Assembly (NCBI GenBank): GCA_965242925.1
Contig: CBDEUM010000022.1
Span: 192,001 to 256,000 of the forward strand
Source of the DNA: Roseibacillus sp.
Lineage (GTDB): Bacteria; Verrucomicrobiota; Verrucomicrobiia; Verrucomicrobiales; Akkermansiaceae
Length of the DNA stretch: 64,000 nt
Reading direction: 5' to 3'
Shown in pieces: positions 44,867 to 58,245 of this stretch (the first letter of the stretch is position 1; every line of letters begins with the position of its first letter). Both the position numbers and the translations under genes were made by a program. A model generated the notes under the pieces. That model worked only from the letters and a program-made list of their open reading frames with translations, was not told where the DNA came from and did no database searches.

Positions 44867-46858
44867 ATGACTTTCCTCCAACAGGCAATGCTCTGGGGAC
44901 TCTTCGCGGTCTCCATCCCCGTCATCATTCACCTGCTGAACCGTCGACGCTTTCGCACCGTGGAGTGGGGCGCAATGCAGTTCCTCCTCAAAGCCACCAA
45001 GGAATCGCGAGGCAAGAAACGCCTCAAGCACTTCCTCATCCTTCTCATGCGCTCCCTGGCCATCGCAACGCTGGTTTTCGCCATTGCCCGCCCCCTGGCA
45101 GGAGGCTTCTTCGGCTGGGGGGGAGGCAAGGTGGAAACCGTTATCCTGATCCTCGACCGCTCCGCCAGCATGGAACGTGCGGAAAAGGACATCCAGGTGA
45201 CCAAGCGTAAGAGCGTGCTCTCCCAGGTGGCCGGGGCCATGGGGGAACTGAACGGCGCCCGCCTCGTCCTCATCGACAGCGCCACCGGCAAGGCCCAGGA
45301 GGTCCCGTCCCCCGATGCCCTCCCGGAACTCTCCTTCACTGCAGCCACCGACTCGGCTTCGGACATCCCCGGTATGCTCGTAACCGCTCTCGATTACATC
45401 AAGGAAGCCAAACCGGGCCGTACGGAGATCTGGGTGGCCTCCGACCTGCAGAAGGAGAACTGGGCACCCGACGACAATCGCTGGGAGGCCTTCCGCGCCA
45501 CCCTGAGCGAAGAGGAGTTTCAGGCCAAGCTGCGTATCCTCGCTCTCAATGGCCGCGAACGCAATGATTTCGCCATCCGTGTGCTCTCCGCCCGCCGGGA
45601 AACCGGGGAACTGGTTCTTGATCTCGAACTGAACCGCGAGGAAGACACCGGACCAACTGCTGTCACGGTCAGTATCGATCACATGGGCGCCCGCTCCGGC
45701 AGCGAGGTTGCCTTCAACGGCCAGAGCCAGCGCTTCCAGAGACGTCTCCCCCTCGAAGGTGCAACGGGGGAGGGATATGGATGGGTCTCCATCGCCGACA
45801 ACGCCAACAAACGCAATAACCTCTCCTACTATGCCTACGGCAGGGAAGCGCCCATCCACTCCTACCTTGTGGTCGAAAACTCCACTGATGAGGAAACAGT
45901 TAAGTCCCTGACCAAGTCGCTCGCCCCCGGCTTTGCCAACCAGGAGGTGAGCGTCCGCAATCCCAACCTCGCCCACCAGATCAACTATGAGTCCGCTTCA
46001 CTCATCGTATGGAAGGCCCCCCTCCCTGGACCACCGGTCTCCAACCAGCTGTTCGACTACGTGAAAAAGGGCGGCGTGGCGCTCTTTCTACCGCCTGCCG
46101 ATGACTCGGAAACCTCTTTTGGCGGGCTTTCCTGGAACTCCATCACGGAAGCTCCCAAGGAAAAGTTCTTCATCGTCAACGACTGGGAACGTGGTGAGGG
46201 CGCCTTCCGTGACTCCCTTGACGGTTCCCCACTGCCCATGGACCGCATTCGTGCCATCAAGCGCCGGGGCATCCTCGGCGATTATACTACCCTGGCAAGC
46301 TGGATAGACAACGAGCCCCTCCTCGCCCGCCGCGTGATCGAGGCCGGCCAGATCCTCTTCCTCTCCACCCTGCCCAGCTACACCTGGTCAAACTTCGAAC
46401 AGACTGCACTCCATCTGGTGGCCCTCCAGCGCACTCTGGACGAAGGCAGCCGACGGCTCGGGGCGGGCTTCTTTGGCACCGCCGGCGAGGAGTCCTCCCA
46501 ACCGGTGGGAGACGAGATTCGCAGCCGCATCGATTCCCATGCGGATAGCGACCCAGGCGATACCACGTTCCAAGCCGGCGTCTATCGTCTCGGTGAACGC
46601 ACCGTAGCGGTAAACCGCCCCGCTACCGAGGATTCCCTCGAAGTGCTCACCAGCGTCGATCTGGAAACCGCCCTTGCCGACACGGGCTACAGCCTCCTTG
46701 AGGAACAGGACGCCTCCAGTGACAGCAGCCTGTCCCGTCCGATCTGGCGGGCCTTCCTCATCGCCATGCTCCTCTTCCTCATTCTGGAGGCTCTCCTCTG
46801 TCTCCAGCCCCGTCGCGTCGATTCCAAGACGGCCCCCTCACCCCTGCCAACCTCCTGA
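44867..46858 (+). CDS. BatA N-terminal domain/VWA membrane protein
   Basis: IPVIIHLLNRRR..WGAMQFL, LDRSASM MIDAS motif and a C-terminal TM. Confidence 0.88.
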   Translation: MTFLQQAMLWGLFAVSIPVIIHLLNRRRFRTVEWGAMQFLLKATKESRGKKRLKHFLILLMRSLAIATLVFAIARPLAGGFFGWGGGKVETVILILDRSASMERAEKDIQVTKRKSVLSQVAGAMGELNGARLVLIDSATGKAQEVPSPDALPELSFTAATDSASDIPGMLVTALDYIKEAKPGRTEIWVASDLQKENWAPDDNRWEAFRATLSEEEFQAKLRILALNGRERNDFAIRVLSARRETGELVLDLELNREEDTGPTAVTVSIDHMGARSGSEVAFNGQSQRFQRRLPLEGATGEGYGWVSIADNANKRNNLSYYAYGREAPIHSYLVVENSTDEETVKSLTKSLAPGFANQEVSVRNPNLAHQINYESASLIVWKAPLPGPPVSNQLFDYVKKGGVALFLPPADDSETSFGGLSWNSITEAPKEKFFIVNDWERGEGAFRDSLDGSPLPMDRIRAIKRRGILGDYTTLASWIDNEPLLARRVIEAGQILFLSTLPSYTWSNFEQTALHLVALQRTLDEGSRRLGAGFFGTAGEESSQPVGDEIRSRIDSHADSDPGDTTFQAGVYRLGERTVAVNRPATEDSLEVLTSVDLETALADTGYSLLEEQDASSDSSLSRPIWRAFLIAMLLFLILEALLCLQPRRVDSKTAPSPLPTS

Positions 46859-46859
46859 C

Positions 46860-49106
46860 GTGAGTTTCAACATCGGTAATTTTCACTTCAGCGCCCCCCT
46901 GCCCGTCGCCATCACGGGCATCGCGGCCTGGTGCCTTATCCTGATCCTCTGTGTGGTTGCCTGGCGGCGCAGTGTGCGCCCGGGTCGTACCGGTCTCCTG
47001 GAGCTCCTTCGCCTCCTCTGCGGAACCGCGGCAGTCTTCTTCCTTCTCAATCCCGAGTGGCGCAAGACCATTGAACCAGCCAAACAACCGGAGATCGTCA
47101 TCCTGCACGACGGATCAGGCTCCATGACAACCGCCGATGCTCAGCTCCCTGAAGAACTGAACGAACGCCGCGAGGTAGTCACCCGCAACGAAATGTCCGA
47201 CGCCATTCTTGAGACGGAGTTCTGGAAACTTCTCGAGAAAGACGGCAGGAATCGCGTTTCGGTGGAATCCTTCTCCAATGCCCCGGAAAGCGAGGACCCC
47301 GAAGTCACGTCCCTTGCCGTAACCGACATCTACTCCGCCCTTGCCGACCTGGTGGATACCCGCCCCGATCTTCGCGCCGTTATCATGATCGGCGATGGCG
47401 ACTGGAATGCCCGGGACAAGCCCGCTCCGGTCGCGGCCGCTCAGAAAATGCGCCTCAAGGACATCCCGCTCTTCTCGGTGGTCACCGGTGCTCCTGCCCG
47501 CCTGCCGGATCTCGACCTCCTCCCCGTTAAAGCCCCCACTTACGGTATCGTGGGTGAGAACGTGCAGATCCCGTTCACCATCGAGTCCTCCCTTGAGCGC
47601 GATGTCCGCACTATTGTCCGCATCCGTGACCAGACAGGCGTGGAGCGCACCAAGAATATCACCATCCCACGGGGAAGCACCTACTACGATGCCATCCTCT
47701 GGCGCCTGCAGAAGGAAGGCAGCTCCACCCTCGAACTCTCCATCCCCTTTGCCGACGGCGAACTGGTCGAGAAGAACAACCGCCGCAGGTTCAACATCGC
47801 AGGCCGTCCCGAATCGATCCGGGTCCTCGTCGTGGAGACCCTGCCACGGTGGGAATATCGCTTCATCCGCAACGCCCTCTCGCGGGATCCCGGCGTTGAT
47901 GTCGATTGCCTCCTCCTCCATCCGCAACTCGGGGAAGGCGACGGCCCCGACTATATCACCGCCTTCCCGGACAAACTGGAGGACCTGCAGAAATACGATG
48001 TCGTCTTCATCGGGGATGTCGGCATCGGAGACGGCATGCTCACCGGGGAGCAGGCCGAACTGTTGAAGGGCCTCGTCGAAAACCAGGCATCCGGCATTGT
48101 CTTCATTCCCGGTTGGCAGGGTCACCAGTTCAGCCTGCTTGATAACGAACTGGGCGGACTCCTCCCCGTTCTCCTCGACGAAGAAATGAAAACCGGCCAG
48201 GAGGAAGCCACCGATTCCCCTCTCTCGCTCACTACCGAAGGCCGTAGTTCGCTCCTCACCATGCTGGGCGACACCGAGGAGGAAAACCCCACCATCTGGC
48301 GGAGCCTGCCAGGCTTTTACTGGCATGCACCTGTCATCCGTGCCAAGAGCGGAACCGAGGTTCTTGCAGTCCATGCCAACCGCCGGCATCCCAAGTACGG
48401 ACACCGCGTCCCCCTCATTGTGACCAGCCGCGCCGGCAACGGGAAAGTCCTCTTCATGGGCATCGATTCCGCCTGGCGCTGGCGCCGCGGCGTGGAAGAC
48501 CTCTACCACTACCGCTTCTGGGGACAGGTTGCCCGCTGGATGTCCTACCAGCGCAATATGGCCGCGGGAGAGCGCGTCCGACTCTATTTCACTCCTGAGC
48601 GTCCCTCCCCCGGCGAAAACGTGACCCTCAACGCGAATGCCTTCCAGGAAAACGGCGCCCCCCTGCAGGATGGAACGGTTCTCGTTGACCTGACCGCTCC
48701 CGATGGAAGCGTACGCCGATTCGAACTGGCCAAGGAGGATGACTCATGGGGCACCTTCACCGGGCGCTTCAAAGTCACCATGCCCGGGGACTGGCAGATT
48801 ACCGCCCGGACATCCGAGAGCGAAAAGGGCGCGGTCCGGACCCGAATCATTGCAGAGGGAACCCAGATCGAAAAAACGGGCCACCCTGCCCGCCCGGATG
48901 TGCTGGCCGAGCTCTCCCGCGTTTCACGTGGCAAACTGGTCGAAGCCTCCCAACTCAAAGCCCTGGCTCAGGAAATCTACGACCTCCCGGAACCTCGACC
49001 CCAGATTATTCCCGAATCCCAGTGGGACAAGTGGTACATCGCCGCAGCCCTTGTCGGCCTGCTCTCCGTTTTCTGGATCGGAAGGAAGCTCAACGGCACC
49101 TTCTAA
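46860..49106 (+). CDS. VWA plus glutamine-amidotransferase-like membrane protein of the MoxR/Bat cluster
   Basis: N-terminal TMs, DGSGSM, PRWEYRFIRNAL and SAWRWR..YHYRFW; GTG 46860 directly follows the upstream stop. Confidence 0.8.
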   Translation: MSFNIGNFHFSAPLPVAITGIAAWCLILILCVVAWRRSVRPGRTGLLELLRLLCGTAAVFFLLNPEWRKTIEPAKQPEIVILHDGSGSMTTADAQLPEELNERREVVTRNEMSDAILETEFWKLLEKDGRNRVSVESFSNAPESEDPEVTSLAVTDIYSALADLVDTRPDLRAVIMIGDGDWNARDKPAPVAAAQKMRLKDIPLFSVVTGAPARLPDLDLLPVKAPTYGIVGENVQIPFTIESSLERDVRTIVRIRDQTGVERTKNITIPRGSTYYDAILWRLQKEGSSTLELSIPFADGELVEKNNRRRFNIAGRPESIRVLVVETLPRWEYRFIRNALSRDPGVDVDCLLLHPQLGEGDGPDYITAFPDKLEDLQKYDVVFIGDVGIGDGMLTGEQAELLKGLVENQASGIVFIPGWQGHQFSLLDNELGGLLPVLLDEEMKTGQEEATDSPLSLTTEGRSSLLTMLGDTEEENPTIWRSLPGFYWHAPVIRAKSGTEVLAVHANRRHPKYGHRVPLIVTSRAGNGKVLFMGIDSAWRWRRGVEDLYHYRFWGQVARWMSYQRNMAAGERVRLYFTPERPSPGENVTLNANAFQENGAPLQDGTVLVDLTAPDGSVRRFELAKEDDSWGTFTGRFKVTMPGDWQITARTSESEKGAVRTRIIAEGTQIEKTGHPARPDVLAELSRVSRGKLVEASQLKALAQEIYDLPEPRPQIIPESQWDKWYIAAALVGLLSVFWIGRKLNGTF

Positions 49107-49145: not shown

Positions 49146-50090
49146 TCAAATCCCCGCCTTGCCCTGCTTGAAGAGCTCTCGCGCCTCTTCCAGATCACGC
49201 CGGATCTGCTTCTTCAACTCTTCCTGGTCCTTGAACTTCTTTTCTGATCGCAACCGCAACCCGAAATAAACCTCCACCCCGGCCTCGTAGAGATCGCCCT
49301 CGAAATCCAGAAGGTGCACCTCCAGGAGACGCCGTTCCCCGTTCACTGTGGGCCTCACCCCCAGGTTCGCCACCCCCCGGTGTGTTTCCCTCTCCTCTCC
49401 AATGGTGGCGGTGACCGCGTAGACCCCGTCAGGTGGCAACTGCTGGTTTCCCAGCATGATGTTGGCCGTGGGCGCGCCCAGTTTGCGACCCAACTGCTCG
49501 CCGCGCACCACCGTCCCCATCACAGTGTAAGATCGTCCAAGCATTCCCGAAGCCGCTCGCAGGTTTCCATCGCGCAACGCCCGGCGCAAACACGTACTGC
49601 TGATCCGCTCCCCCTTCAACATGACCGGCGGCACGGCAGTCACCTCTACCCCGTGGGGTTTGCCCAGTCCCCGCAGGAGATCCATCGTTCCCCGCCGCTC
49701 CCGTCCGAATTTCCAGTCCTCGCCTGCCACCACCTGCCGCAGGGCCGCCACCGAAAAAAGGTGTTCCCCAAATTCCTCCGCCGACTGGCGCGCCATTGTC
49801 TCGTCAAAGCGCAATACCAGCAGCACTTTCACCCCCAGGGATGCCAGGAGACGCTCCTTGTGTTCCAGCGACACCAGAATCCGCCGGGGAGCCCGCCCGG
49901 GGGCCAATATCTGGATGGGATGCGGTTCAAGGGTCAGCACTCCTGCCACGCCCCCGCTCCTGCCTGCCCCTTCCACTGCCGTTCCGATCACCGCCTGATG
50001 CCCCAGATGCAGGCCGTCAAACACTCCCATGGCGAGGTGCAGAGGTCCTTGAACCTCTTCCAATTCAGCAATGGTCGACAACCGTTTCAC
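49146..50090 (-). CDS. ribF: Riboflavin kinase/FAD synthetase
   Basis: GVFDGLHLGHQ, ISST, PTAN, GVRPT and LEVHLLDF. Confidence 0.97.
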   Translation of the reverse strand: MKRLSTIAELEEVQGPLHLAMGVFDGLHLGHQAVIGTAVEGAGRSGGVAGVLTLEPHPIQILAPGRAPRRILVSLEHKERLLASLGVKVLLVLRFDETMARQSAEEFGEHLFSVAALRQVVAGEDWKFGRERRGTMDLLRGLGKPHGVEVTAVPPVMLKGERISSTCLRRALRDGNLRAASGMLGRSYTVMGTVVRGEQLGRKLGAPTANIMLGNQQLPPDGVYAVTATIGEERETHRGVANLGVRPTVNGERRLLEVHLLDFEGDLYEAGVEVYFGLRLRSEKKFKDQEELKKQIRRDLEEARELFKQGKAGI

Positions 50091-50109: not shown

Positions 50110-50835
50110 TCAAGCTCCCCGCATCAACGAAATCTCTGCCAGGCTCACCATTGAGTTGATCAACTCCTGGGCCTCCGTGTTCTTCAGGGTCTCCACCTTC
50201 ACCGCCCGATCGAGCGTAAACTCCCCCGACCGTGTGCGCCGCAGCGAAGAGAGATGGCCGCCACAACCCAGCGTGGATCCAATATCGTGCGCATAGCTCC
50301 GGACGTAGAATCCCTTTGAACAGTTCACCGTGAAGTCGATCTCGGGAATTGCGATCCGGGTAAGTTCATAGGCGGTCACGTAGACGGGCCGCGGATCCCG
50401 CTTCACTTCCTTCCCCTTGCGGGCGAGCTTGTAGAGAGGCACCCCATCCTTTTTGATCGCGGAGACCATGGGCGGGATCTGTTCGAATTTGCCCGAGTAT
50501 TGCTCGAATGCGGACCGAACATCGTCCTCGCTCACCCCCGTCACCTCCCGCTCCTCAATTACTTCCCCTTCCGCATCCTGTGTGCTGGTGGTCGACCCCA
50601 ACGTGACGGTGCCCACATACTCCTTGTCCTCGCTCATGAGAAGATCCTGAATCTTGGTCGCGCGACCCACCACCAGCATCAGGAGCCCTGTCGCCATCGG
50701 ATCCAGGGTCCCGCAATGGCCAATCTTCTTGATGCCCATGGATCGTCGCGCAATGGCAACCACGTCGTGGGAGGTCATCCCGGGATCCTTATCCACCAGG
50801 AGCACTCCACTTGGTACAATATTCGGTTCGTTCAT
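50110..50835 (-). CDS. truB: tRNA pseudouridine-55 synthase
   Basis: DKDPGMTSHD, GHCGTLDPMATG and CSKGFYVRS. Confidence 0.97.
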   Translation of the reverse strand: MNEPNIVPSGVLLVDKDPGMTSHDVVAIARRSMGIKKIGHCGTLDPMATGLLMLVVGRATKIQDLLMSEDKEYVGTVTLGSTTSTQDAEGEVIEEREVTGVSEDDVRSAFEQYSGKFEQIPPMVSAIKKDGVPLYKLARKGKEVKRDPRPVYVTAYELTRIAIPEIDFTVNCSKGFYVRSYAHDIGSTLGCGGHLSSLRRTRSGEFTLDRAVKVETLKNTEAQELINSMVSLAEISLMRGA

Positions 50836-51818
50836 TCGCTCAAAGGAGAGAGAGTTGCCTGCGCCACCCGCAGGAGCCGTGCGACCGCATCTTCCAGTGG
50901 CCCCTGCGTCCGCGCCCCAGCCGCCAGGGCATGGCCCCCGCCTCCAAACTGCGCACAAATGTCACACACGTTGACGGAGGAATCCTTGGAACGCAGCGAG
51001 AGCCGTACTTTCCCATCCGCCATCTCCTCCACAAAGGCGCAGACGAGAACCCCTCGGATCGCACGCAGGACGTCGATCAGCCCTTCACTGTCTCCTGCCT
51101 GCATTCCCACCTGTTCCTTTGTTTTGTGGGATAGTGTCCACCACGCAATCCTGCCATCGTCGGTTAACTGCGTGGTCTCAAGGAGCGCCCGCAGCAATTC
51201 CACTCTCCGATATGGATAATCGTGGTAAAGGCGTGCAGTCAGGGACGCGACATCAAGACCCCGACCCACCAGATCAGCCGCCATCCGGTGTGTGTGCACC
51301 GTCGTGTTGGAATACTGGAACGATCCCGTGTCAGTCGAGAGAGCAACATAGAGCGCATCACGCGCCACATCGGGCAGGGGCCACTCGAGCTCCCGGATAA
51401 GGCCGTAGAGAATCTCCCCCGTGGCGGCTGCACTGGAATCAATGAGCAAGTGGTCGCCATATTCTTCGTTCGAGATGTGGTGATCGATGTTAACCCAGAG
51501 CTTCCCCTCTCCCAGCACCTCAAGACACCCCGCGCCAAGGCGCTCCCGGTTTGCCGTGTCGAGCGCGATGACCACCTCGGTCTCTAGGGGTTCAGACGGA
51601 CGCTCGATCCCCTCCACGCCATTCAGAAAAAGCAGGTTATCCGGCACGCCATCCTCGTTGAGCGCACGGACCGATTTACCCAACGCTTCCAATACGGCCT
51701 TGAGCGCCACCTCTGACCCGATCGCATCACCATCGGGACGGGCATGACTCAGGAGCACGAAGTGCTCGTGTGTGGAGACAATCCTGAAAAGCCCGGATGC
51801 TGTGATCGGTTGACCCAT
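50832..51818 (-). CDS. nrnA: DHH/DHHA1 phosphoesterase (NrnA-like)
   Basis: HARPDGDAIGS, IDHH, DTGSF, SLRS and GGGHALAAG. Confidence 0.92.
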   Translation of the reverse strand: MGQPITASGLFRIVSTHEHFVLLSHARPDGDAIGSEVALKAVLEALGKSVRALNEDGVPDNLLFLNGVEGIERPSEPLETEVVIALDTANRERLGAGCLEVLGEGKLWVNIDHHISNEEYGDHLLIDSSAAATGEILYGLIRELEWPLPDVARDALYVALSTDTGSFQYSNTTVHTHRMAADLVGRGLDVASLTARLYHDYPYRRVELLRALLETTQLTDDGRIAWWTLSHKTKEQVGMQAGDSEGLIDVLRAIRGVLVCAFVEEMADGKVRLSLRSKDSSVNVCDICAQFGGGGHALAAGARTQGPLEDAVARLLRVAQATLSPLSE

Positions 51819-52045
51819 GGACGGTTGGAACGTTCAGCGGGAAGGGCGCGGATTGTCTACAACACCCGCAGGATCGCAAGCAAAAGTAGGGCTTTATGAA
51901 GGAGCCGCACCGGGGACCGGAAATCCGCGATTCCGGGCCTTCCTCTATCCCTTTCACCTGCCTGGTGTGCGACAACAGAAACCACCGTATCGTGAATCCG
52001 AAGTCCGGCGGACAAACGATGAGGATCAAGCCCTCAGGAGCCGGG

Positions 52046-53179
52046 CTACTGTTCCGGCGTCTTTTCCAGACCTTCGCCTTGAGTCCGCCCTTCCGCGGCT
52101 TCCTCGATCCCCAGCCGTTCGGCGCGAAGATACGCGGTCCGGGCTTCCTTCTCTTTTCCCATTTCAGTCAGGCATTTCCCGAATTCGAGGTGTCCATGGC
52201 CAAAATCCGGCCATGCCCGCAAGAGCTGCGAATAGGAGATCTCGGCAAGCTCCAGATTTTCCTGCTCACGGTAAAACTGGGCGAGATAGTAAAGGGCCAC
52301 CGCATTCTCAGGCTGATAGTTCAGGACACGGCGACAACGGTCTGCAGCCTCCTCGGTAACGCCCCCGTGGCGTTTCTCACCGGCAACCTGATAAGCGCTA
52401 TGGATCCAGAGGTCCCGGCTGTTGCTGTCAATGGCAGCCCCCATCAATTCCTCAAACAATTCGGCGATCTCCGGGGCCAGACGTTCCACCGAATCAACGA
52501 AAGCATCCACGATTTCATAAACGCTGAACCGGCTCAGGATTCCCTTGCCGGTGGCAAACTCCCTGTCGCTGAACAGCAGATTGCGCATTCGCGCGTGGAG
52601 CAGGTTGTAGGCGGTATCGGACAGGAAGATGCGGAAATGGTGGCCATCGCGGGAGTGAGACTCAATCCGTTTCGCCAGGTTGATCGCGTAGCCCTGCATC
52701 TTGAATCCGGATTCCAACTGCCTCGCCCAGACAGTCCCGAAATTAATCCCAACCGCAATCTCAGCCGCAGCCGAGCGGCGTTCTACCCGCTCCCGGTTAA
52801 AGGGGGATGCGAACCAGGCAGCCTTGAGCGTAATCCCGAGCGTTGCGAGAAGGTAAACATCATTTGAGGGCTTGGCAGTGTGCATGAAAAACACCAGCTC
52901 GTCACCTATCACAAAGTACTCGTAATCCCGGACTCGCTCATACTTCCCGCGCAGATAATGCTCAAAAAAATGCTCACACTGGACACGCACCACCTCGTGA
53001 AACGACTCAACGTAATCCGAATATTCCTTGAGCCCGAGAACACTGGCGAACACCGATGAATCGACCAGGTCCACGAACATGATTGCCGTGTCCAGGGGCC
53101 CTTCCCACTTTGGCTGACTGCCCGCTGGCGCGCTCACTTCCTCCCGGGATTCGCCCTCGCGCTTTGACGATGAACCCAT
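52046..53179 (-). CDS. Class III nucleotide cyclase domain plus C-terminal TPR repeats
   Basis: AIMFVDLVDS, IGDE, VGINFGTV, GYAINLAKRIES and GKG. TPR-like ALYYLAQFY..PDFGHGHLEFG. Confidence 0.85.
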   Translation of the reverse strand: MGSSSKREGESREEVSAPAGSQPKWEGPLDTAIMFVDLVDSSVFASVLGLKEYSDYVESFHEVVRVQCEHFFEHYLRGKYERVRDYEYFVIGDELVFFMHTAKPSNDVYLLATLGITLKAAWFASPFNRERVERRSAAAEIAVGINFGTVWARQLESGFKMQGYAINLAKRIESHSRDGHHFRIFLSDTAYNLLHARMRNLLFSDREFATGKGILSRFSVYEIVDAFVDSVERLAPEIAELFEELMGAAIDSNSRDLWIHSAYQVAGEKRHGGVTEEAADRCRRVLNYQPENAVALYYLAQFYREQENLELAEISYSQLLRAWPDFGHGHLEFGKCLTEMGKEKEARTAYLRAERLGIEEAAEGRTQGEGLEKTPEQ

Positions 53180-53466
53180 CACTCGATCTCTGCTGGGTCA
53201 GGGACATGGGGGACAACCTCAGCTGGGTCAGGGACGTTGGGGACGATCTCGGCCGGGTCGGGAACATTAGTACCCTCTGCCGGGGGGGTGGCGCCAGGAT
53301 CGCTTTCCTTCTCGTCTCCAATAACCTTCCCCGTCTCCGGCGACGAGGGACCAGCTCCCCCTCCCCTGCTCGTTGTGGACGACTCCTCACAGCCCGCCGA
53401 AAAAAGGGAAACCGCACACATCACCAGCATGCACCGGAACAGAAAAAAGAATGAATTGGTCATCAT
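53179..53466 (-). CDS. Small lipoprotein with three C-terminal VPDPAE repeats
   Basis: Hydrophobic leader with lipobox-like FSAGC; 30-nt repeat with synonymous variation; TGATG overlap with the cyclase start. Confidence 0.75.
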   Translation of the reverse strand: MMTNSFFFLFRCMLVMCAVSLFSAGCEESSTTSRGGGAGPSSPETGKVIGDEKESDPGATPPAEGTNVPDPAEIVPNVPDPAEVVPHVPDPAEIE

Positions 53467-53778
53467 TAGATAGGTGGCTTGGTGGTTATCCTGATCTGAT
53501 TATTCCCCTCGTCCCAACTGCATGACGAGACAAATCAATCAAGGCTGTCGGATGTCATTACTACAAACGGAAAACCAGAGGTCCGTTTTCATAATAATCG
53601 CAAATCCGACATAATATTGTCATGGCGCAACGGGCAGAAGCGACTTTCCATCTCAGTTCACCACAACACAAAACCCCGGCAGGATCGACGTATGCTGCCA
53701 CCCAGAGTTCCTCGCTGTGATCTCCGCCCGGGATCAGCAGTGGCGCGGGCAGGCGCACCTCGAAAACACCCCGGCCAC

Positions 53779-54138
53779 CTACTCCTCTTCTTCCTGGGGT
53801 GCCGTCGGCAACTCCGCCACCTTGTCGAGCAGGTTGACGATATCCACCCCCCGCACAACCGAGTCATCGCTGAGGAAACGCAGAACGGGCGTGTTCTTCA
53901 ACACCACCCGTTTCATCACCCGGCCCTGAATGGATCCGTGTTCTCCATTGAGCCGTGAAATCACCTTCCCTTCGTGCCCGCCCAGCACTCCTATAAAGAC
54001 CTTCGCCTCCTTCAGGTCCTGCGAAACCTCCACCGCATTCACTGTCACCAGTGATCCGTCCCATTCGAAATCACGCTGCAGGACACCACTGATCTCACGC
54101 TTCAGCAGTTCGTTTACCCTGTCAGTACGTCGCGACAT
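53779..54138 (-). CDS. rbfA: Ribosome-binding factor A
   Basis: RTDRVNELLKREIS, VEVSQDL.EAKV and TPVLRF; follows infB. Confidence 0.95.
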   Translation of the reverse strand: MSRRTDRVNELLKREISGVLQRDFEWDGSLVTVNAVEVSQDLKEAKVFIGVLGGHEGKVISRLNGEHGSIQGRVMKRVVLKNTPVLRFLSDDSVVRGVDIVNLLDKVAELPTAPQEEEE

Positions 54139-54187
54139 GGATCTCCCGAATGATAAATTACCAACGCCCCAAATGGCAGCCAGAGCG

Positions 54188-56287
54188 CTAAAGGGTCTGA
54201 TCGATCTTCTCGAGCTCGTAGCATTCGATTACGTCGTCGACTTCGTACTCGTTGAACTCCCCAAGCCGGATTCCGCATTCGATGCCCTGTTTGACTTCCT
54301 CCACATCATCATTGATCCGCCGCAGGGTGGACATTTTCCCGTCAAATACGGGCGTGCCATCCCTCAACACACGCGCATGCGCCGTCCGGGTCACCTTGCC
54401 GTCCGCGACCAGGCAGCCCGCTGCCCGTCCCCGCTTGACCTTGAAAATCTGCTTCACCTCGGCATGCCCGAGAATGTTCTCTCGCAGCTCCGGTTCCAGC
54501 AGTCCCAACATGGCATCCTTCACCTGATCGATGAGTTCGTAGACAATCGAATAAAGCTTTATCTGCACACCCTCACGCTTGGCACCCTTTACCGCGTTGC
54601 TCTCCACCTTCACGTTGAATCCCAGCACCACCGCGTCCGAACTGCTGGCCAGCAGGATGTCGGACTCGCTGATCGATCCAGCCGCCGCATGGATAAAATT
54701 GACCTCCACCTTGTCGGACTCCACATCGCCAATCGCCCCCTTGATTGCCTCAACCGACCCCTGCACGTCACATTTCAGGATCAACTTGAGCACCACCTTC
54801 TGGCCTCCTTCAACCATAGCCAGCATATCTTCCATGCGGCTTTTCCTGGGACGCTCCAGACGCTCCTGCCGACGCTCAAGCTGCCGCTCGTCGCTCAGCT
54901 TCTTGGCCGCCCTTTCGTGCTCCATGGCCACCAGTTCATCCCCAACGTTGGGCAGTTCGGCAAATCCAAGCACTTCCACCGGGATGGCTGGACCGGCCTC
55001 CTCCACCTGCTCGTTCCGATCGTTGAGGAGCGACTTCACCTTACCCGCATAGGGGCCGCAGATAAACGGGGTGCCTACTTCAAGGGTTCCCGTCTCCACT
55101 ATCACGGTGGCGGTCGGACCCTTCCCGGGCTGCACCTTGGCCTCAATCACGGCGGCACGCGCATTCGCTTCGGGATTCGCCTTCAGCTCCAGCACCTCCG
55201 CCTGCAATGCCATTAACTCGGCCAGTTCGTCCATTCCCTGGCCGGTGATGGCCGAGACTTCCACCGTCTCCGTGTTGCCCCCCAGATCTGTTGACATGAG
55301 GTCCTGCTCCATGAGCTGAGTCTTCACCTTCATGGGGTCGGCACCCGCCACATCGCACTTGTTGATCGCTACAATGATGGTCTTGCCCGCTGCCTTGGCG
55401 TGACTGATCGCCTCCCTGGTCTGCGGCATGATTCCGTCGTCGGCCGCCACCACCAGCACCACGATGTCCGTGACGTCCGCGCCCCGGGCCCGCATCTCCG
55501 TGAAAATCGCGTGCCCCGGTGTATCGATAAAGGTAATCGGGCGCCCTTCATGCTCCACCCGGTAGGCCCCGATGTGCTGTGTGATCCCGCCGGCTTCCCC
55601 GTCCACGACTTTCGACTTGCGGACATAGTCCAGAAGAGAGGTCTTGCCGTGATCAACGTGTCCCATGAAGGTGATGATGGGCGCCCGCAGTTCGAGCTTT
55701 TCGGCAGGCTCATGTTCCTCCGGCTCGGGCTCCTCGATGACTTCCTCCACCTTGTGGACTCCACCACCCTTCTCGCGCTTCTCGCGTTCAAAGACAAAAC
55801 CGTGCTGCTCGCAGACATTTTCCGCCACTTCCGGTTCGATGGCCTGATTAGGCGCCACGAACACCTCCAACTGGATGAGATCCTTCATGATCTCAAACGG
55901 TTTCAGCCCCATCATCTCCGCAAGCACGCTCACGATGATGGGCGGCTTAATGCTGATGGTGTTTCCTTCAACCACTCCGATTTCCTCCTCCGCCTCGCCC
56001 TCTTCCAAAGGTTCCCCGCTCACGACAAAGTCCGGATCCTGGACCTCATCCGTCAGCTTCGAAATGCTCGGGAGCTGTTTCTTGCCGGACTTCTCGGTTT
56101 TTCGGACCGCCGCCGCCTTCTTCTGTTCATCCTCATCGATGATGTCGAGCGCCTCGTCCTTCTTATCCTGAACGGTCTTCTGCTCGGCTGCCTGAGCCCG
56201 CTGCCGTTCACGACGCGACGGCTTGTTCTGTTCGTCGACCAAGTCGAGAACTTCCTTCTTTTTGTCGCTGTCGCCCTTGTCCGGCAT
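54188..56287 (-). CDS. infB: Translation initiation factor IF-2
   Basis: [24 protein letters not shown] and NKCD. Confidence 0.98.
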
Positions 56288-56320
56288 GGTGACCCTCTAA
56301 ACCTCTCTAACTTACCGTGA

Positions 56321-58032
56321 TTACGAATCGTCGGCAGCAGATGCAGATTTCTTGTTCTCTTCCTTCTCCGTGGCTGGTTCTTCCTCCGCGGCAGGTTCTT
56401 CCTCCGTGGCTGGTTCTTCCTCCGTGGCAGGTTCTTCCTCCGTGGCAGGTTCTTCCTCCGCGGCAGGTTCTTCCTCCGTGGCAGGTTCTTCCTCCGTGGC
56501 AGGTTCTCCTCCGTGGCAGGTTCTTCCTCCGTGGCAGGTTCTTCCTCCGTGGCAGGTTCTTCCTCCGTGGCAGGCTCTTCCTCCGTGGCAGGCTCTTCCT
56601 CCGTGGCAGGTTCTTCCTCCGTGGCAGGTTCTTCCTCCGTGGCAGGTTCTTCCTCCGTGGCAGGTTCTTCCTCCGTGGCAGGTTCCTCCTCCGTGGCAGG
56701 TTCTTCCTCCGCGGCAGGTTCTTCCTCCGCGGCAGGTTCTTCCTCCGCGGCAGGTTCTTCCTCCCGGGCAGGTTTTCCGCTGAGGGATTGCGCCTGGTCG
56801 AGAATCTTCTGGGCTTCCTCTTCTGTAGACTCCAGCGACTGAGCGATGTAGTCCACCGGCATCTGCAACACCATGTCCGAAGACACACCCCCGGCACGGT
56901 AAAGTTTGTCGGCGATCTGCGGATCTACGCCCAATTCCTCCGCCAGTCCGATGGCGGCATCAGTTACCCGCGCCTCGAACTGCTCGTGCTGACTCTCGTC
57001 CTTGCGCACCTGCACGTCCCAGTTCACCAGCTTGGAAGTGAGCCGCGCATTCTGTCCCCGGCGACCGATTGCCTTGCTCAGGTCTTCCTCATCCACGGTC
57101 ACATTGATCACCTTGTTCTCCTGGTCCAGGGTGATGGACCGGATCAGTGCCGGTTTGAGGGCGTCGGTCACGAAGGGTTCCGGTTCGTCACTCCAGCGGA
57201 TGATGTCCACCTTCTCGTTGTTGAGTTCCCGCACGATGTTCTTCACCCGCGCTCCGCGCAGGCCGACGCAGGCACCGACCGGATCCACCTTTCCATCATT
57301 GCTGAAAACTGCCACCTTGGTCCGGTAGCCGGCCTCCCGCGCGATCCCACGGATCTCCACCGTGTGATCCGAAATCTCGCTCACCTCCGCCTCAAAAAGT
57401 CTTCGCACGAAATTCGGGTGACTGCGGGAGAGCATAATCTCCGGCCCCCGCAACTCGTTGTCCACCGAAACCACATACGCCCGGATACGATCTCCGACGT
57501 TGTAGTCCTCGGTCGAGACTCGTTCCCGCGACGGCATGCGGGCTTCGAATTTTCCGAGGTCGATCATGACATCGTTCTTCTCAAAGCGCCGCACCGCTCC
57601 ACTCACGATGTCGCCGGCGCGATCCTTGAACTCGTCGTAGATCTTCTCCTTCTCGGCCTGGCGCAACCGCTGCATCATGGTCTGCTTGGCAGTCTGCACC
57701 GCAATACGCCCGAAATTCTTTGGCGTCACGTTGAACTCCAGGGGATCATTCAGCTGGACCTCCGGATTCTTCCGACTCGCGAGGGAGATCGGCACCTCGT
57801 TGAACTTGTCCTGATGGTCGTCATCGGCCACCACCCGGAGGGTCGCAAAAATCCGCGTCTCCCCTTGCTTGGTATCCACTTCCGCCCGGAGCTCTTCAAT
57901 ATCCTCCGCCCCCGGAACCATCCGCCGGTAAGCTGACAAGAAGGCATTCTCAAGAGCCTCGACCACCTTCTCGCGCTCGATGCTCTTTTCCTTTTCGTAG
58001 AATTCTATGAGGGCGACGAGGTCGTTCGTCAT
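56321..58032 (-). CDS. nusA: Transcription factor NusA with acidic repeat tail (apparent 1-nt deletion near 56505)
   Basis: FGRIAVQTAKQ, AREAGYRTKVAV, DPVGACVG and AIGRRGQN. Restoring the 17-bp unit gives TAA at 56321-56323 just before infB (570 aa). Confidence 0.95.
56372..56766 (-). repeat. 18-bp tandem repeat encoding (EEEPAT/A)n, 22 units
   Basis: Unit ggcaggttcttcctccgt on the + strand; one unit is 17 bp (56498-56514). Confidence 0.95.
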
Positions 58033-58056
58033 GATCTTCTGATCGTTCTGGTCTGG

Positions 58057-58102
58057 GGACGCAAAAGAGCGGGTCGTGGGAACCCACTCTTCGAAAGCGT
58101 CC
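58057..58102 (-). promoter_or_regulatory. rimP/nusA-leader-like hairpin
   Basis: Minus strand GGACGC-TTTCG-AAGAGTGGGT-TCCCACG-ACCCGCTCTT-TT-GCGTCC. It matches the GAGTGGG..CCCrCTCTTTT pattern of the rimP leader and ends 24 nt upstream of nusA. Confidence 0.7.
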
Positions 58103-58245
58103 AGAGTTGTTCTGTTGCGGTGGCTATAGGGATGCTCCCCCCATGAATCAAGACAAAAGACCGGCCCGACCATTCACTCCACCCGGCCCATGCGGGCCCG
58201 TGAAACCGCTCGGTTCACCCTCCCCGGCATCCTGCCTGCCGGTTC

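Follow-up and report, generated by a model that had tools for sequence, protein, structure and literature searches.

A two-gene module was identified in a 64,000-nucleotide stretch of Roseibacillus sp. DNA (Verrucomicrobiota; GenBank assembly GCA_965242925.1, contig CBDEUM010000022.1, positions 192,001 to 256,000 of the forward strand), which at its full length is referred to here as the window. The first gene encodes a small predicted lipoprotein with a repeated VPDPAE[IV] motif, and the second, directly behind it, encodes a class III cyclase-homology domain joined to a tetratricopeptide repeat (TPR) region. The pairing of the two genes is conserved, the motif is under selection, and the enzyme has a cyclase fold with catalytic residues and carries no export signal. 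The reading favoured here, with a rough probability of 35%, is that the two proteins form a cognate ligand-receptor pair in which the enzyme would sense its partner before export and respond with a cyclic nucleotide. We infer that binding would change the activity of the enzyme, whether upwards or downwards, that the product would be a cyclic nucleotide and that sensing would precede export.

In the proposed mechanism, the small protein would be synthesised with a signal peptide of the lipoprotein type, and its disordered tail would bear the motif V-P-D-P-x-E/x-[IL], while the cyclase-TPR protein, which would remain cytoplasmic, would be translated from the same mRNA directly behind it. The motif peptide TNVPDPAEIVPN is the proposed ligand, and it would dock in a cleft formed by the concave face of the TPR region and the cyclase-homology domain, thereby setting the cyclic-nucleotide output. 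Since the motif lies on the exported part of the partner, the enzyme is proposed to read this partner before it has left the cytoplasm. The pool of precursor awaiting export would thus report the state of Sec and lipoprotein export, converting it into a second-messenger signal.

The elements listed in a preliminary description of this DNA, namely a 95-amino-acid (aa) open reading frame (ORF) with a lipobox, three VPDPAE[IV] repeats, a TGA/ATG overlap, a cyclase-TPR protein without transmembrane segments and a split between rbfA and nrnA, are all present in the sequence. The N-terminus of the small ORF, MMTNSFFFLFRCMLVMCAVSLFSAGC, matches a lipobox regular expression of the PROSITE type. Past the lipobox Cys, the remaining 69 residues have an acidic composition with much Pro and Gly (15 D+E, 3 K+R, 13 P, 8 G). 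At the DNA level, the three motif copies correspond to a 30-nucleotide (nt) direct repeat at 53188-53277, whose copies are 100, 83 and 63% identical to the reference copy and differ mostly at synonymous sites (AAT/AAC, GTT/GTC, CCC/CCT, CCG/CCA, GCC/GCT/GCA). In the whole genome, no more than 22 stop-to-stop frames of at least 60 aa (5.6 million residues) contain the pattern VPDPxx[ILVM], and three copies of it are found only in the small lipoprotein ORF, which speaks against a chance occurrence.

Selection on the peptide, which the preliminary description had suspected from the synonymous differences between copies, was borne out by the comparison of orthologues. Among seven Roseibacillus orthologues, at a synonymous divergence (dS) of about 1, the ratio of nonsynonymous to synonymous change (dN/dS) was 0.12 for the motif, 0.35 for the linker, 0.44 for the signal peptide and 0.34 for the whole small ORF; for the cyclase gene, the same comparison gave 0.09. 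Strain variants in the small ORF, seen in RNA-library contigs, are synonymous in seven of nine cases, including all four that fall in the repeats. In the eight Roseibacillus orthologues, the Cys of the lipobox (8/8), SRGG and VPDP.E are invariant, although the number of motif copies changes: one in L002, L003, L005, L006 and L007, two in L004, three in the window and four in L009. By these sequence measures, the small ORF is a real gene under purifying selection. A gene for signal peptidase II (Peptidase_A8) is present in the genome. No NCBIfam model matched the small ORF, and the best score of an ESM Atlas search with it was 0.84, below lead level. A PEP-CTERM sorting signal, with its VPEP-like core, was considered and rejected, as neither a membrane helix nor an Arg cluster follows the motif.

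The pair was then followed in relatives. A full-length cyclase-TPR orthologue with 74-90% identity was found in 8 of the 19 other genomes of the genus, with a remnant in one more (G010), and in none of the 21 genomes outside it; within the genus, every locus with upstream DNA has the small ORF ahead of the cyclase gene. The wider family comprises 63 clusters with 40-98% identity over about 90% of the length and 335-414 aa, apart from one fragment of 202 aa (P0061), and its named members are mostly labelled class 3 adenylate cyclase. For the comparison of neighbourhoods, 75 loci from species genomes and 79 from metagenomes were used; four rows are duplicates (L039=L038, L107=L023, L117=L022, L128=L035), and close relatives are not independent. 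A locus was counted as paired when an ORF on the same strand, ending at most 600 nt upstream of the cyclase match, contained [VI]PDP..[ILVM]. The 63 loci with a cyclase of 41% identity or more come from Roseibacillus, Luteolibacter, other Verrucomicrobiota, Sumerlaeota and Planctomycetota, and such an ORF lies upstream in 45 of them: in 27 of 28 at 70% identity or more, the 28th (L106) having no upstream DNA, and in 18 of 35 at 41-51% identity, which belong to Luteolibacter, other Verrucomicrobiota, a metagenome-assembled genome (MAG) of Sumerlaeota and metagenome contigs. It was found in 0 of 88 control loci from a cyclase-TPR clade of 24-35% identity. The neighbouring exported ORF that the preliminary description had expected beside homologous cyclases is therefore mostly in place.

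These relatives also indicate which parts of the partner matter. A single motif copy is present in 26 of the 45 motif-bearing loci, and the copy number ranges from 1 to 4; therefore it is the motif that matters, not its repetition. The tail beyond the last copy measures 1-12 residues, with one exception of 21. Distant partner proteins carry LASC, FAGC, VTGC, MAAC or LSSC at the lipobox, or, in L034, a membrane anchor instead. The carriers themselves differ widely. In Sumerlaeota (L037/L139), a 246-aa Gly-zipper lipoprotein ends in VPDADEI..IPDEDEI; the tail of L125 reads VGDPKKL..VADPRKI; in L126/L135 the motif stands at the end of a large protein (..VPDP[VI]DLK), and in L042/L127 a large membrane-anchored, CxxCH-rich, multihaem-like protein ends in ..AE[AP][VI]DLK. 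In the Pirellulales locus L041, a convergent gene directly downstream of the cyclase encodes an exported protein of 211 aa, in which two strict copies follow closely on the signal peptide. Among the partners of relatives searched with Pfam, only the Gly-zipper protein (L037) and a DUF4384 protein (L032) gave matches above the cut-offs, whereas none was obtained for L041, L045 and L054. In view of these exceptions of carrier and order, what is conserved is an export signal, a short motif and a neighbouring enzyme, rather than repetition, a small carrier or a fixed gene order. That the tag moves from carrier to carrier and from one gene order to another speaks for protein-level recognition.

Both genes have decayed in G010 (L010:1141-2267), where the cyclase has an internal deletion that joins query residues 14-73 to 313-369 and an insertion-sequence-type transposase ORF of 169 aa stands in place of the small ORF, leaving the remnant ..DPAELPNVPDPDK. 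A programmed frameshift fusing the two ORFs was also considered; it was rejected, as the genes are 40-252 nt apart in L028, L029 and L135 and convergent in L041.

The arrangement of the two genes raises the question of whether the small ORF acts as a leader peptide. In this explanation, its C-terminal motif would arrest the ribosome, as in SecM, MifM or VemP, unless export pulls on the chain, and the arrest would set translation of the cyclase. The N-terminal export signal, the position of the motif 1-12 residues from the stop and the overlapping or close stop and start would suit such a leader. However, residues past PDP are conserved, internal copies can be as far as about 35 residues away from the stop, and the distance from stop to cyclase match grows to 252 nt in L029 and 148 nt in L135, while in L041 the motif gene is convergent and its motif N-terminal. 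Furthermore, a ribosome stalled five codons before the overlapping start would mask that start, the downstream gene is a cyclase and not a Sec or YidC component, and the predicted contact described below lends its support to an interaction between proteins. Control by arrest is therefore considered extremely unlikely.

The enzyme was examined through its sequence, its predicted structure and its family alignment. Pfam gave a weak match to Guanylate_cyc (PF00211) over residues 33-199 (25.8 bits against a cut-off of 21.9; E 9.6e-6) and one to TPR_19 over residues 277-314 (28.7 bits against a cut-off of 25). The most hydrophobic window of 19 residues is not a membrane helix; it corresponds to the beta1 strand of the cyclase domain, which carries a metal Asp. 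An AlphaFold2 (AF2) model of the 378-aa protein, built from a family alignment of 25 sequences, reached a mean predicted local distance difference test score (pLDDT) of 91.1 and a predicted template modelling score (pTM) of 0.88, and it consists of a mixed alpha/beta domain over residues 27-227, against which eight helices at residues 237-370 are packed. When the model was compared with solved structures by Foldseek, the top matches were all class III cyclases: OaPAC 4yus (E 3.5e-9), CyaB 3r5g (template modelling score, TM, 0.77-0.79, target-normalised), CyaC 1wc0 and Rv1900c 1ybu.

The 25 family sequences all share D38, D94, K171, R172 and E174, and at least 90% of them have N168. D38 aligns with the metal Asp of Rv1900c in IMFTDIVGS, and D94 is taken by us to be the metal Asp of the GD motif; N168 and R172 (N-x-x-x-R) align with the Asn and Arg of rhodopsin guanylyl cyclase (GYAINLAKRIES vs GDTVNTASRMES). 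Since both metal Asp residues and the Asn/Arg pair are kept family-wide, an active enzyme is indicated. The 378-aa protein is accordingly taken to be a divergent class III cyclase with atypical specificity residues and a putative active cytoplasmic enzyme. A six-frame search of the genome with PF00211 at E <= 0.001 returned no match and missed even the module's own divergent domain, so that it cannot establish this cyclase as the only one. At E <= 0.01, Pfam recognised only generic TPR families in the protein (TPR_19, TPR_16, TPR_17 and others) and none specific to RRNPP receptors; NCBIfam returned only sub-threshold generic TPR matches and no RRNPP model. Fused longer forms of the protein (686-2000 aa) were not found at E <= 1e-10, which is weak evidence.

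As a separate observation, a stand-alone cyclic-nucleotide-binding protein of 160 aa (C30:77123-77605; L101:1124-1606) is the sole PF00027 match in the genome and a candidate receptor. Its orthologue, with at least 61% identity, occurs in 7 of the 9 Roseibacillus genomes that have the cyclase and in 3 of the 11 that have no intact copy of it. This phyletic link was not used as support, since relatives of the binding protein occur in genomes of the order that have no cyclase and kin are not independent. A Pycsar-type defence cyclase was rejected as an interpretation because there is no adjacent effector gene with a cyclic-nucleotide-binding domain.

Binding of the motif to the enzyme was assessed by co-folding enzyme residues 20-378 (alignment of 25 rows) with residues 27-95 of the small protein (alignment of 8 rows). 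The score was 0.73 (individual runs 0.74, 0.73 and 0.68), whereas the best of three controls gave 0.02 (range 0.00-0.02). The co-fold mark is reached by 116 of 157 solved complexes and by 2 of 215 mismatched pairs, counts that hold only approximately here because custom alignments were used. In the best run, the small protein contacts the enzyme through residues 66-74 and 76, TNVPDPAEI.P, that is, through one copy of the motif. On the side of the enzyme, the interface includes residues 76-77, 104, 106-107, 110-111 and 198-201 of the cyclase domain, the linker 228-233 and residues 266, 269-270, 298, 329 and 333 of the TPR helices, and the predicted docking site is thus a cleft between the TPR region and the cyclase domain. 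Y110, R200, N201, F228, R234, Y298 and D329 are invariant or nearly so. The co-fold supports binding of the motif to the cyclase-TPR protein, although it does not show it. A hint in the same direction is given by covariation between the sixth motif position and enzyme residue 104: E at this position always occurs with K or R at residue 104, while N or S at residue 104 accompanies V, Q or D in four lineages (L035/L129, L043/L044/L134, L126 and L127).

Two proposals of the preliminary description are modified by these results. It had taken the repeat to be a processed ligand or docking motif; the co-fold does dock VPDPAEI, while repetition as such is not conserved. It had also assigned the action of the ligand to the TPR region, which does take part in the predicted site, together with the cyclase domain that would form the other side of the cleft. 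Overall, direct binding of the two proteins, with the possibility of a chaperone included, is considered probable.

In a chaperone role, the cyclase-TPR protein would serve the tagged partner in the cytoplasm as its own holdase or targeting factor, as TPR chaperones do for type III secretion substrates, and its cyclase-like domain would be secondary or inactive. The predicted docking of an unfolded tail in the TPR cleft is compatible with it, as is a similarity of the TPR region to the LcrH/SycD and SctY chaperones in NCBIfam (E 0.03-0.17), which is non-significant and far below the cut-offs. On the other hand, the family-wide conservation of the metal Asp pair and of the Asn/Arg residues points to an active enzyme. 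Moreover, Sec substrates as small as this one need no dedicated chaperone. Such a role is thus regarded as very unlikely.

It might also be that there is no direct contact at all, the lipoprotein and the cyclase being merely co-expressed, for instance for a shared envelope function, while the TPR region binds another protein. The mature proteins belong to different compartments, which agrees with this view; the cleft residues are kept even in the distant loci that have no strict motif; and the co-fold runs need not share any contacts, with a partner pLDDT of about 40. Nevertheless, a motif of eight residues stands beside the enzyme across phyla, on unrelated carriers and once in a convergent gene, in contrast to none of the 88 controls, and the co-fold places exactly the VPDP motif at conserved residues. 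Mere co-expression is therefore judged to be quite unlikely.

If the two proteins do bind, the place where the motif is read becomes the central issue, and the main competitor of sensing before export is a signalling route of the RRNPP type. In that case, the tail would be cut to VPDPxEI peptides, taken up again through an Opp-type (oligopeptide permease) transporter and bound in the cytoplasm by the cyclase-TPR protein, reporting cell density or envelope proteolysis. The pairing, the selection and the predicted docking would apply equally to this route, and one to four copies would increase the yield of peptide per precursor. Many RRNPP propeptides carry their motif near the C-terminus, as do nearly all partners here. 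The genome encodes two family-5 (Opp/Dpp-type, SBP_bac_5) binding proteins, and the positions after VPDP vary by lineage and may track receptor residue 104. As the genome encodes signal peptidase II as well as Opp-type binding proteins, their occurrence does not discriminate between the routes. In contrast to fast-diverging pherotypes, however, the VPDP core is invariant across phyla, and in several relatives the tag is found on large exported proteins, such as the Gly-zipper lipoprotein and the multihaem-like protein; together these two features are a poor fit to a quorum propeptide with private pherotypes. Moreover, the pair has no linked gene for a processing protease or a permease, the receptor has only generic TPR Pfam families and a different output domain, and a peptide of 7-10 residues would also need to pass an outer membrane. 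Signalling by re-imported peptides is hence held to be unlikely, and of the RRNPP-type analogy drawn in the preliminary description there remains a small exported gene beside a receptor, set against a generic TPR region, a cyclase output and other hosts.

Sensing of the partner before export is favoured over this route because the VPDP core is unchanged across phyla and because the tag also occurs on large exported proteins, which presumably have functions of their own. It is further favoured because synthesis of a protein of 72-95 aa is complete by the time export can begin, and because the overlapping stop and start place both syntheses together. A broader formulation can be given in which the portable VPDPxE[IL] tag serves as a protein-level secretion monitor on varied Sec-exported carriers, whose dwell time in the cytoplasm would be converted into a cyclic-nucleotide signal. 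This formulation is doubtful; if true, diderm bacteria of the Planctomycetota-Verrucomicrobiota-Chlamydiota (PVC) group would have a second messenger that reports their capacity for export or lipoprotein maturation, a system with no known counterpart.

Several points weigh against sensing before export, and in part against the pair as a signalling unit. The chief problem is that the mature motif lies outside the cytoplasmic membrane, whereas the enzyme, which requires nucleoside triphosphates, lies inside. General Sec export is constitutive, and a precursor pool of a size suited to signalling is an assumption. Seventeen of the 35 distant loci have no strict motif upstream; in L032, L033 and L120-123 the upstream neighbour is an exported DUF4384 protein without the motif, and in L119 and L132/133 nothing recognisable is found there. 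The positions that specify the purine (four residues before D94, and residue 161), placed by the numbering of CyaC and mammalian cyclases, are variable across the family, which makes the product and even the activity uncertain. Agreement between the co-fold runs is at least 0% of contacts, and the disordered partner has a pLDDT of at least 39; the disagreement may reflect three equivalent copies docking in turn. The contact residues are only modestly more conserved than the background (0.70 vs 0.61 overall, a value reached by 500 of 10,000 random sets). The covariation with residue 104 comes from few lineages, and three lineages without E keep K or R there (L036, L038, L041). Transcription of the pair is suggested by marine RNA-library contigs that cover both genes and bridge the junction in three runs, with at least 31 letters on each side, but these contigs may come from DNA carry-over and do not give the strand.

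The DUF4384 proteins deserve a note of their own. They are Pro-rich exported proteins of 305-343 aa (L032:1988-2905, L033:1959-2906, L120:408-1439) that end in ..YAPLLY..I..LHYR, and in this sub-clade the cleft residues of the enzyme are kept.

The features of the locus are collected in Table 1. The pair sits between rbfA and an nrnA-like gene; in 5 of 5 genomes of the genus without the pair, rbfA is followed directly by nrnA with a gap of about 220-260 nt, which marks the pair as an indel of roughly 1.7 kb at this position. Where the two genes meet, the sequence is GAGTGATGG; one base of the TGA belongs to the ATG as well, and two of its bases also belong to an in-frame GTG immediately before that ATG. 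Such a stop/start overlap is a layout typical of translational coupling, and many orthologous loci likewise have their stop codon at -4 or -5 nt relative to the cyclase match. The promoter-like and terminator-like sites listed in the table are weak hints that the pair may be its own transcription unit. A further weak hint for the promoter is given by RNA-library contigs of three runs, which end at 53533-53545, the next contig starting at 53624; gaps between such contigs (e.g., 53546-53623) are no evidence of absence. An Rfam scan at E <= 1 found no RNA family at 51000-54500.

Table 1. Features of the two-gene module and its surroundings, in window positions.
Feature	Position	Strand	Remarks
Cyclase-TPR gene, class III cyclase-homology domain and TPR region, 378 aa	52046-53182	-	no signal peptide or membrane segment
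Cyclase-homology domain, about aa 27-230	52493-53104	-	D38, D94, N168, R172
TPR region, about aa 237-370	52073-52474	-	eight helices packed on the cyclase domain
Small partner gene, predicted lipoprotein, 95 aa	53179-53466	-	signal peptide, lipobox Cys26, SRGGG motif, disordered acidic linker, 3x VPDPAE[IV]
Signal peptide and lipobox, codons 1-26	53389-53466	-	..LFSAG-C
Three tandem motif copies, aa 67-95	53182-53268	-	NVPDPAEIVP, NVPDPAEVVP, HVPDPAEIE
Gene junction GTGATG	53177-53182	-	TGA of the small ORF overlaps GTG and ATG starts of the cyclase gene
Promoter-like site ATGACA-18-GATTAT	53594-53623	-	consensus scan; second hexamer preceded by TG; in the AT-rich spacer ahead of the small ORF
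Terminator-like hairpin	52020-52036	-	consensus scan; just past the cyclase stop
nusA	56053-58173	-	
infB	54188-56287	-	
rbfA	53779-54138	-	Pfam RBFA, E 7.5e-22; upstream flank of the pair
nrnA-like gene, DHH/DHHA1	50832-51818	-	Pfam; downstream flank of the pair
truB	50110-50958	-	
ribF	49146-50090	-	

Some further observations were made in the surroundings. In three Roseibacillus species, a predicted lipoprotein gene of at least 365 aa follows the cyclase gene (L003:2676-4097, L006:1-1095, L007:1-1132), with ..CLGWLGCEE or ..CLAWVGCED at its lipobox region and, for the L003 copy, no Pfam match; no nrnA occurs there within the 1.5 kb of downstream DNA taken. In view of this extra gene and the missing nrnA, the gap between rbfA and nrnA may be a variable insertion site. 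Inside nusA, an 18-nt tandem repeat at 56366-56778 comprises 23.1 copies with 95% identity. The long ORF reads this array as EEEPA[AT] and then as NLPRRK, and it extends 234 nt into infB, which suggests a frame change within the array, either real or due to an error in the assembly of the MAG. At 44867-49106, upstream of ribF on the plus strand, there are two long ORFs (663 and 810 aa) with N-terminal membrane segments.

No description of the module was found in the full-text literature searched, a coverage that leaves subscription journals outside, in keeping with the statement of the preliminary description that the arrangement was not known to it. The regulation of most bacterial class III cyclases is poorly known, and an encoded partner bearing a recognition motif would be a new kind of input. 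If the peptide is re-imported, receptor-propeptide signalling of the RRNPP type would be extended to diderm PVC bacteria and to a second-messenger output; if the partner is read before export, a new way of monitoring protein export would emerge, and the eight-residue tag could be reused as a tool. The pair, being small (two genes and one short peptide), is directly testable, and its hosts include abundant marine Verrucomicrobia (Roseibacillus) whose signalling is little studied.

In comparison with known systems, the RRNPP receptors (Rap, NprR, PlcR, PrgX, AimR) share with the module a cytoplasmic TPR receptor encoded beside, and often overlapping, a small exported precursor, the predicted ligand being a short motif close to the C-terminus of that precursor, sometimes in several copies. 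They differ in their output, which is a helix-turn-helix (HTH) domain or a phosphatase rather than a class III cyclase, and in their hosts, which are Firmicutes or their phages rather than diderm Verrucomicrobiota, Planctomycetota and Sumerlaeota. In addition, the precursor described here is a lipoprotein, or a large exported protein in relatives, its motif core is conserved across phyla, and the predicted site is a cleft between TPR and cyclase domains.

Export activity sets the state of a regulator in FlgM/sigma-28, in IpgC with IpaB/IpaC and MxiE, and in ExsE/ExsC. In these systems, as proposed for the module, a cytoplasmic regulator is bound by a departing protein, and IpgC is itself a TPR protein; unlike the module, with its Sec route, signal peptidase II and cyclic nucleotide, they operate through type III secretion and transcription factors. 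The likeness is one of logic only, with no homology shown. Sentinel lipoproteins such as RcsF and NlpE similarly allow the trafficking state of a small lipoprotein to be read as an envelope signal. Their read-out is nevertheless periplasmic, by the membrane sensors IgaA and CpxA, whereas a soluble cytoplasmic enzyme would serve here. The secretion monitors SecM, MifM and VemP are likewise small and exported, carry a conserved motif at the C-terminus and have their genes immediately before the gene that they regulate, but they act by ribosome stalling on Sec/YidC genes, while the motif of the module is predicted to bind the downstream protein.

Among cyclases, the fold, the Asp/Asp/Asn/Arg set and an accessory TPR region are matched by the cyclase-homology domains (CHDs) of CyaB, CyaC and Rv1900c and by class III cyclases with TPRs, such as the mycobacterial CHD-ATPase-TPR-HTH proteins. 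In contrast to these, the enzyme described here is short, combining a CHD with four TPR-like helix pairs, has no ATPase or HTH domain, does not conserve the purine-specifying residues, scores only 25.8 bits in Pfam and is genetically coupled to a motif-bearing partner. A parallel in gene arrangement is offered by the cyclase-TPR clade found mostly in Desulfobacterota (L045 and others, 24-35% identity), where an enzyme of about 365 aa is preceded by a partner gene ending 1-4 nt before its start and encoding a conserved extreme C-terminus (..[IT]ID[ILM]EL). That partner differs in being anchored N-out/C-in, with a coiled coil, a cytoplasmic tail and no VPDP motif. It measures 137-173 aa (L045:2476-2985, L054:2563-2976; same position in L046, L051, L063, L066, L067, L069, L071 and L077), with a short N-terminus, one membrane helix, RTRKK-type charges and no Pfam match above the cut-off. 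As this clade has a tailed partner of its own, cyclase-TPR proteins with membrane-associated, tailed partners may form a broader class. In essence, the pair is most like an RRNPP receptor with its propeptide or an export-coupled regulator, yet it fails the defining features of both in output, homology, hosts and secretion route, and there is a real chance that it represents a new principle.

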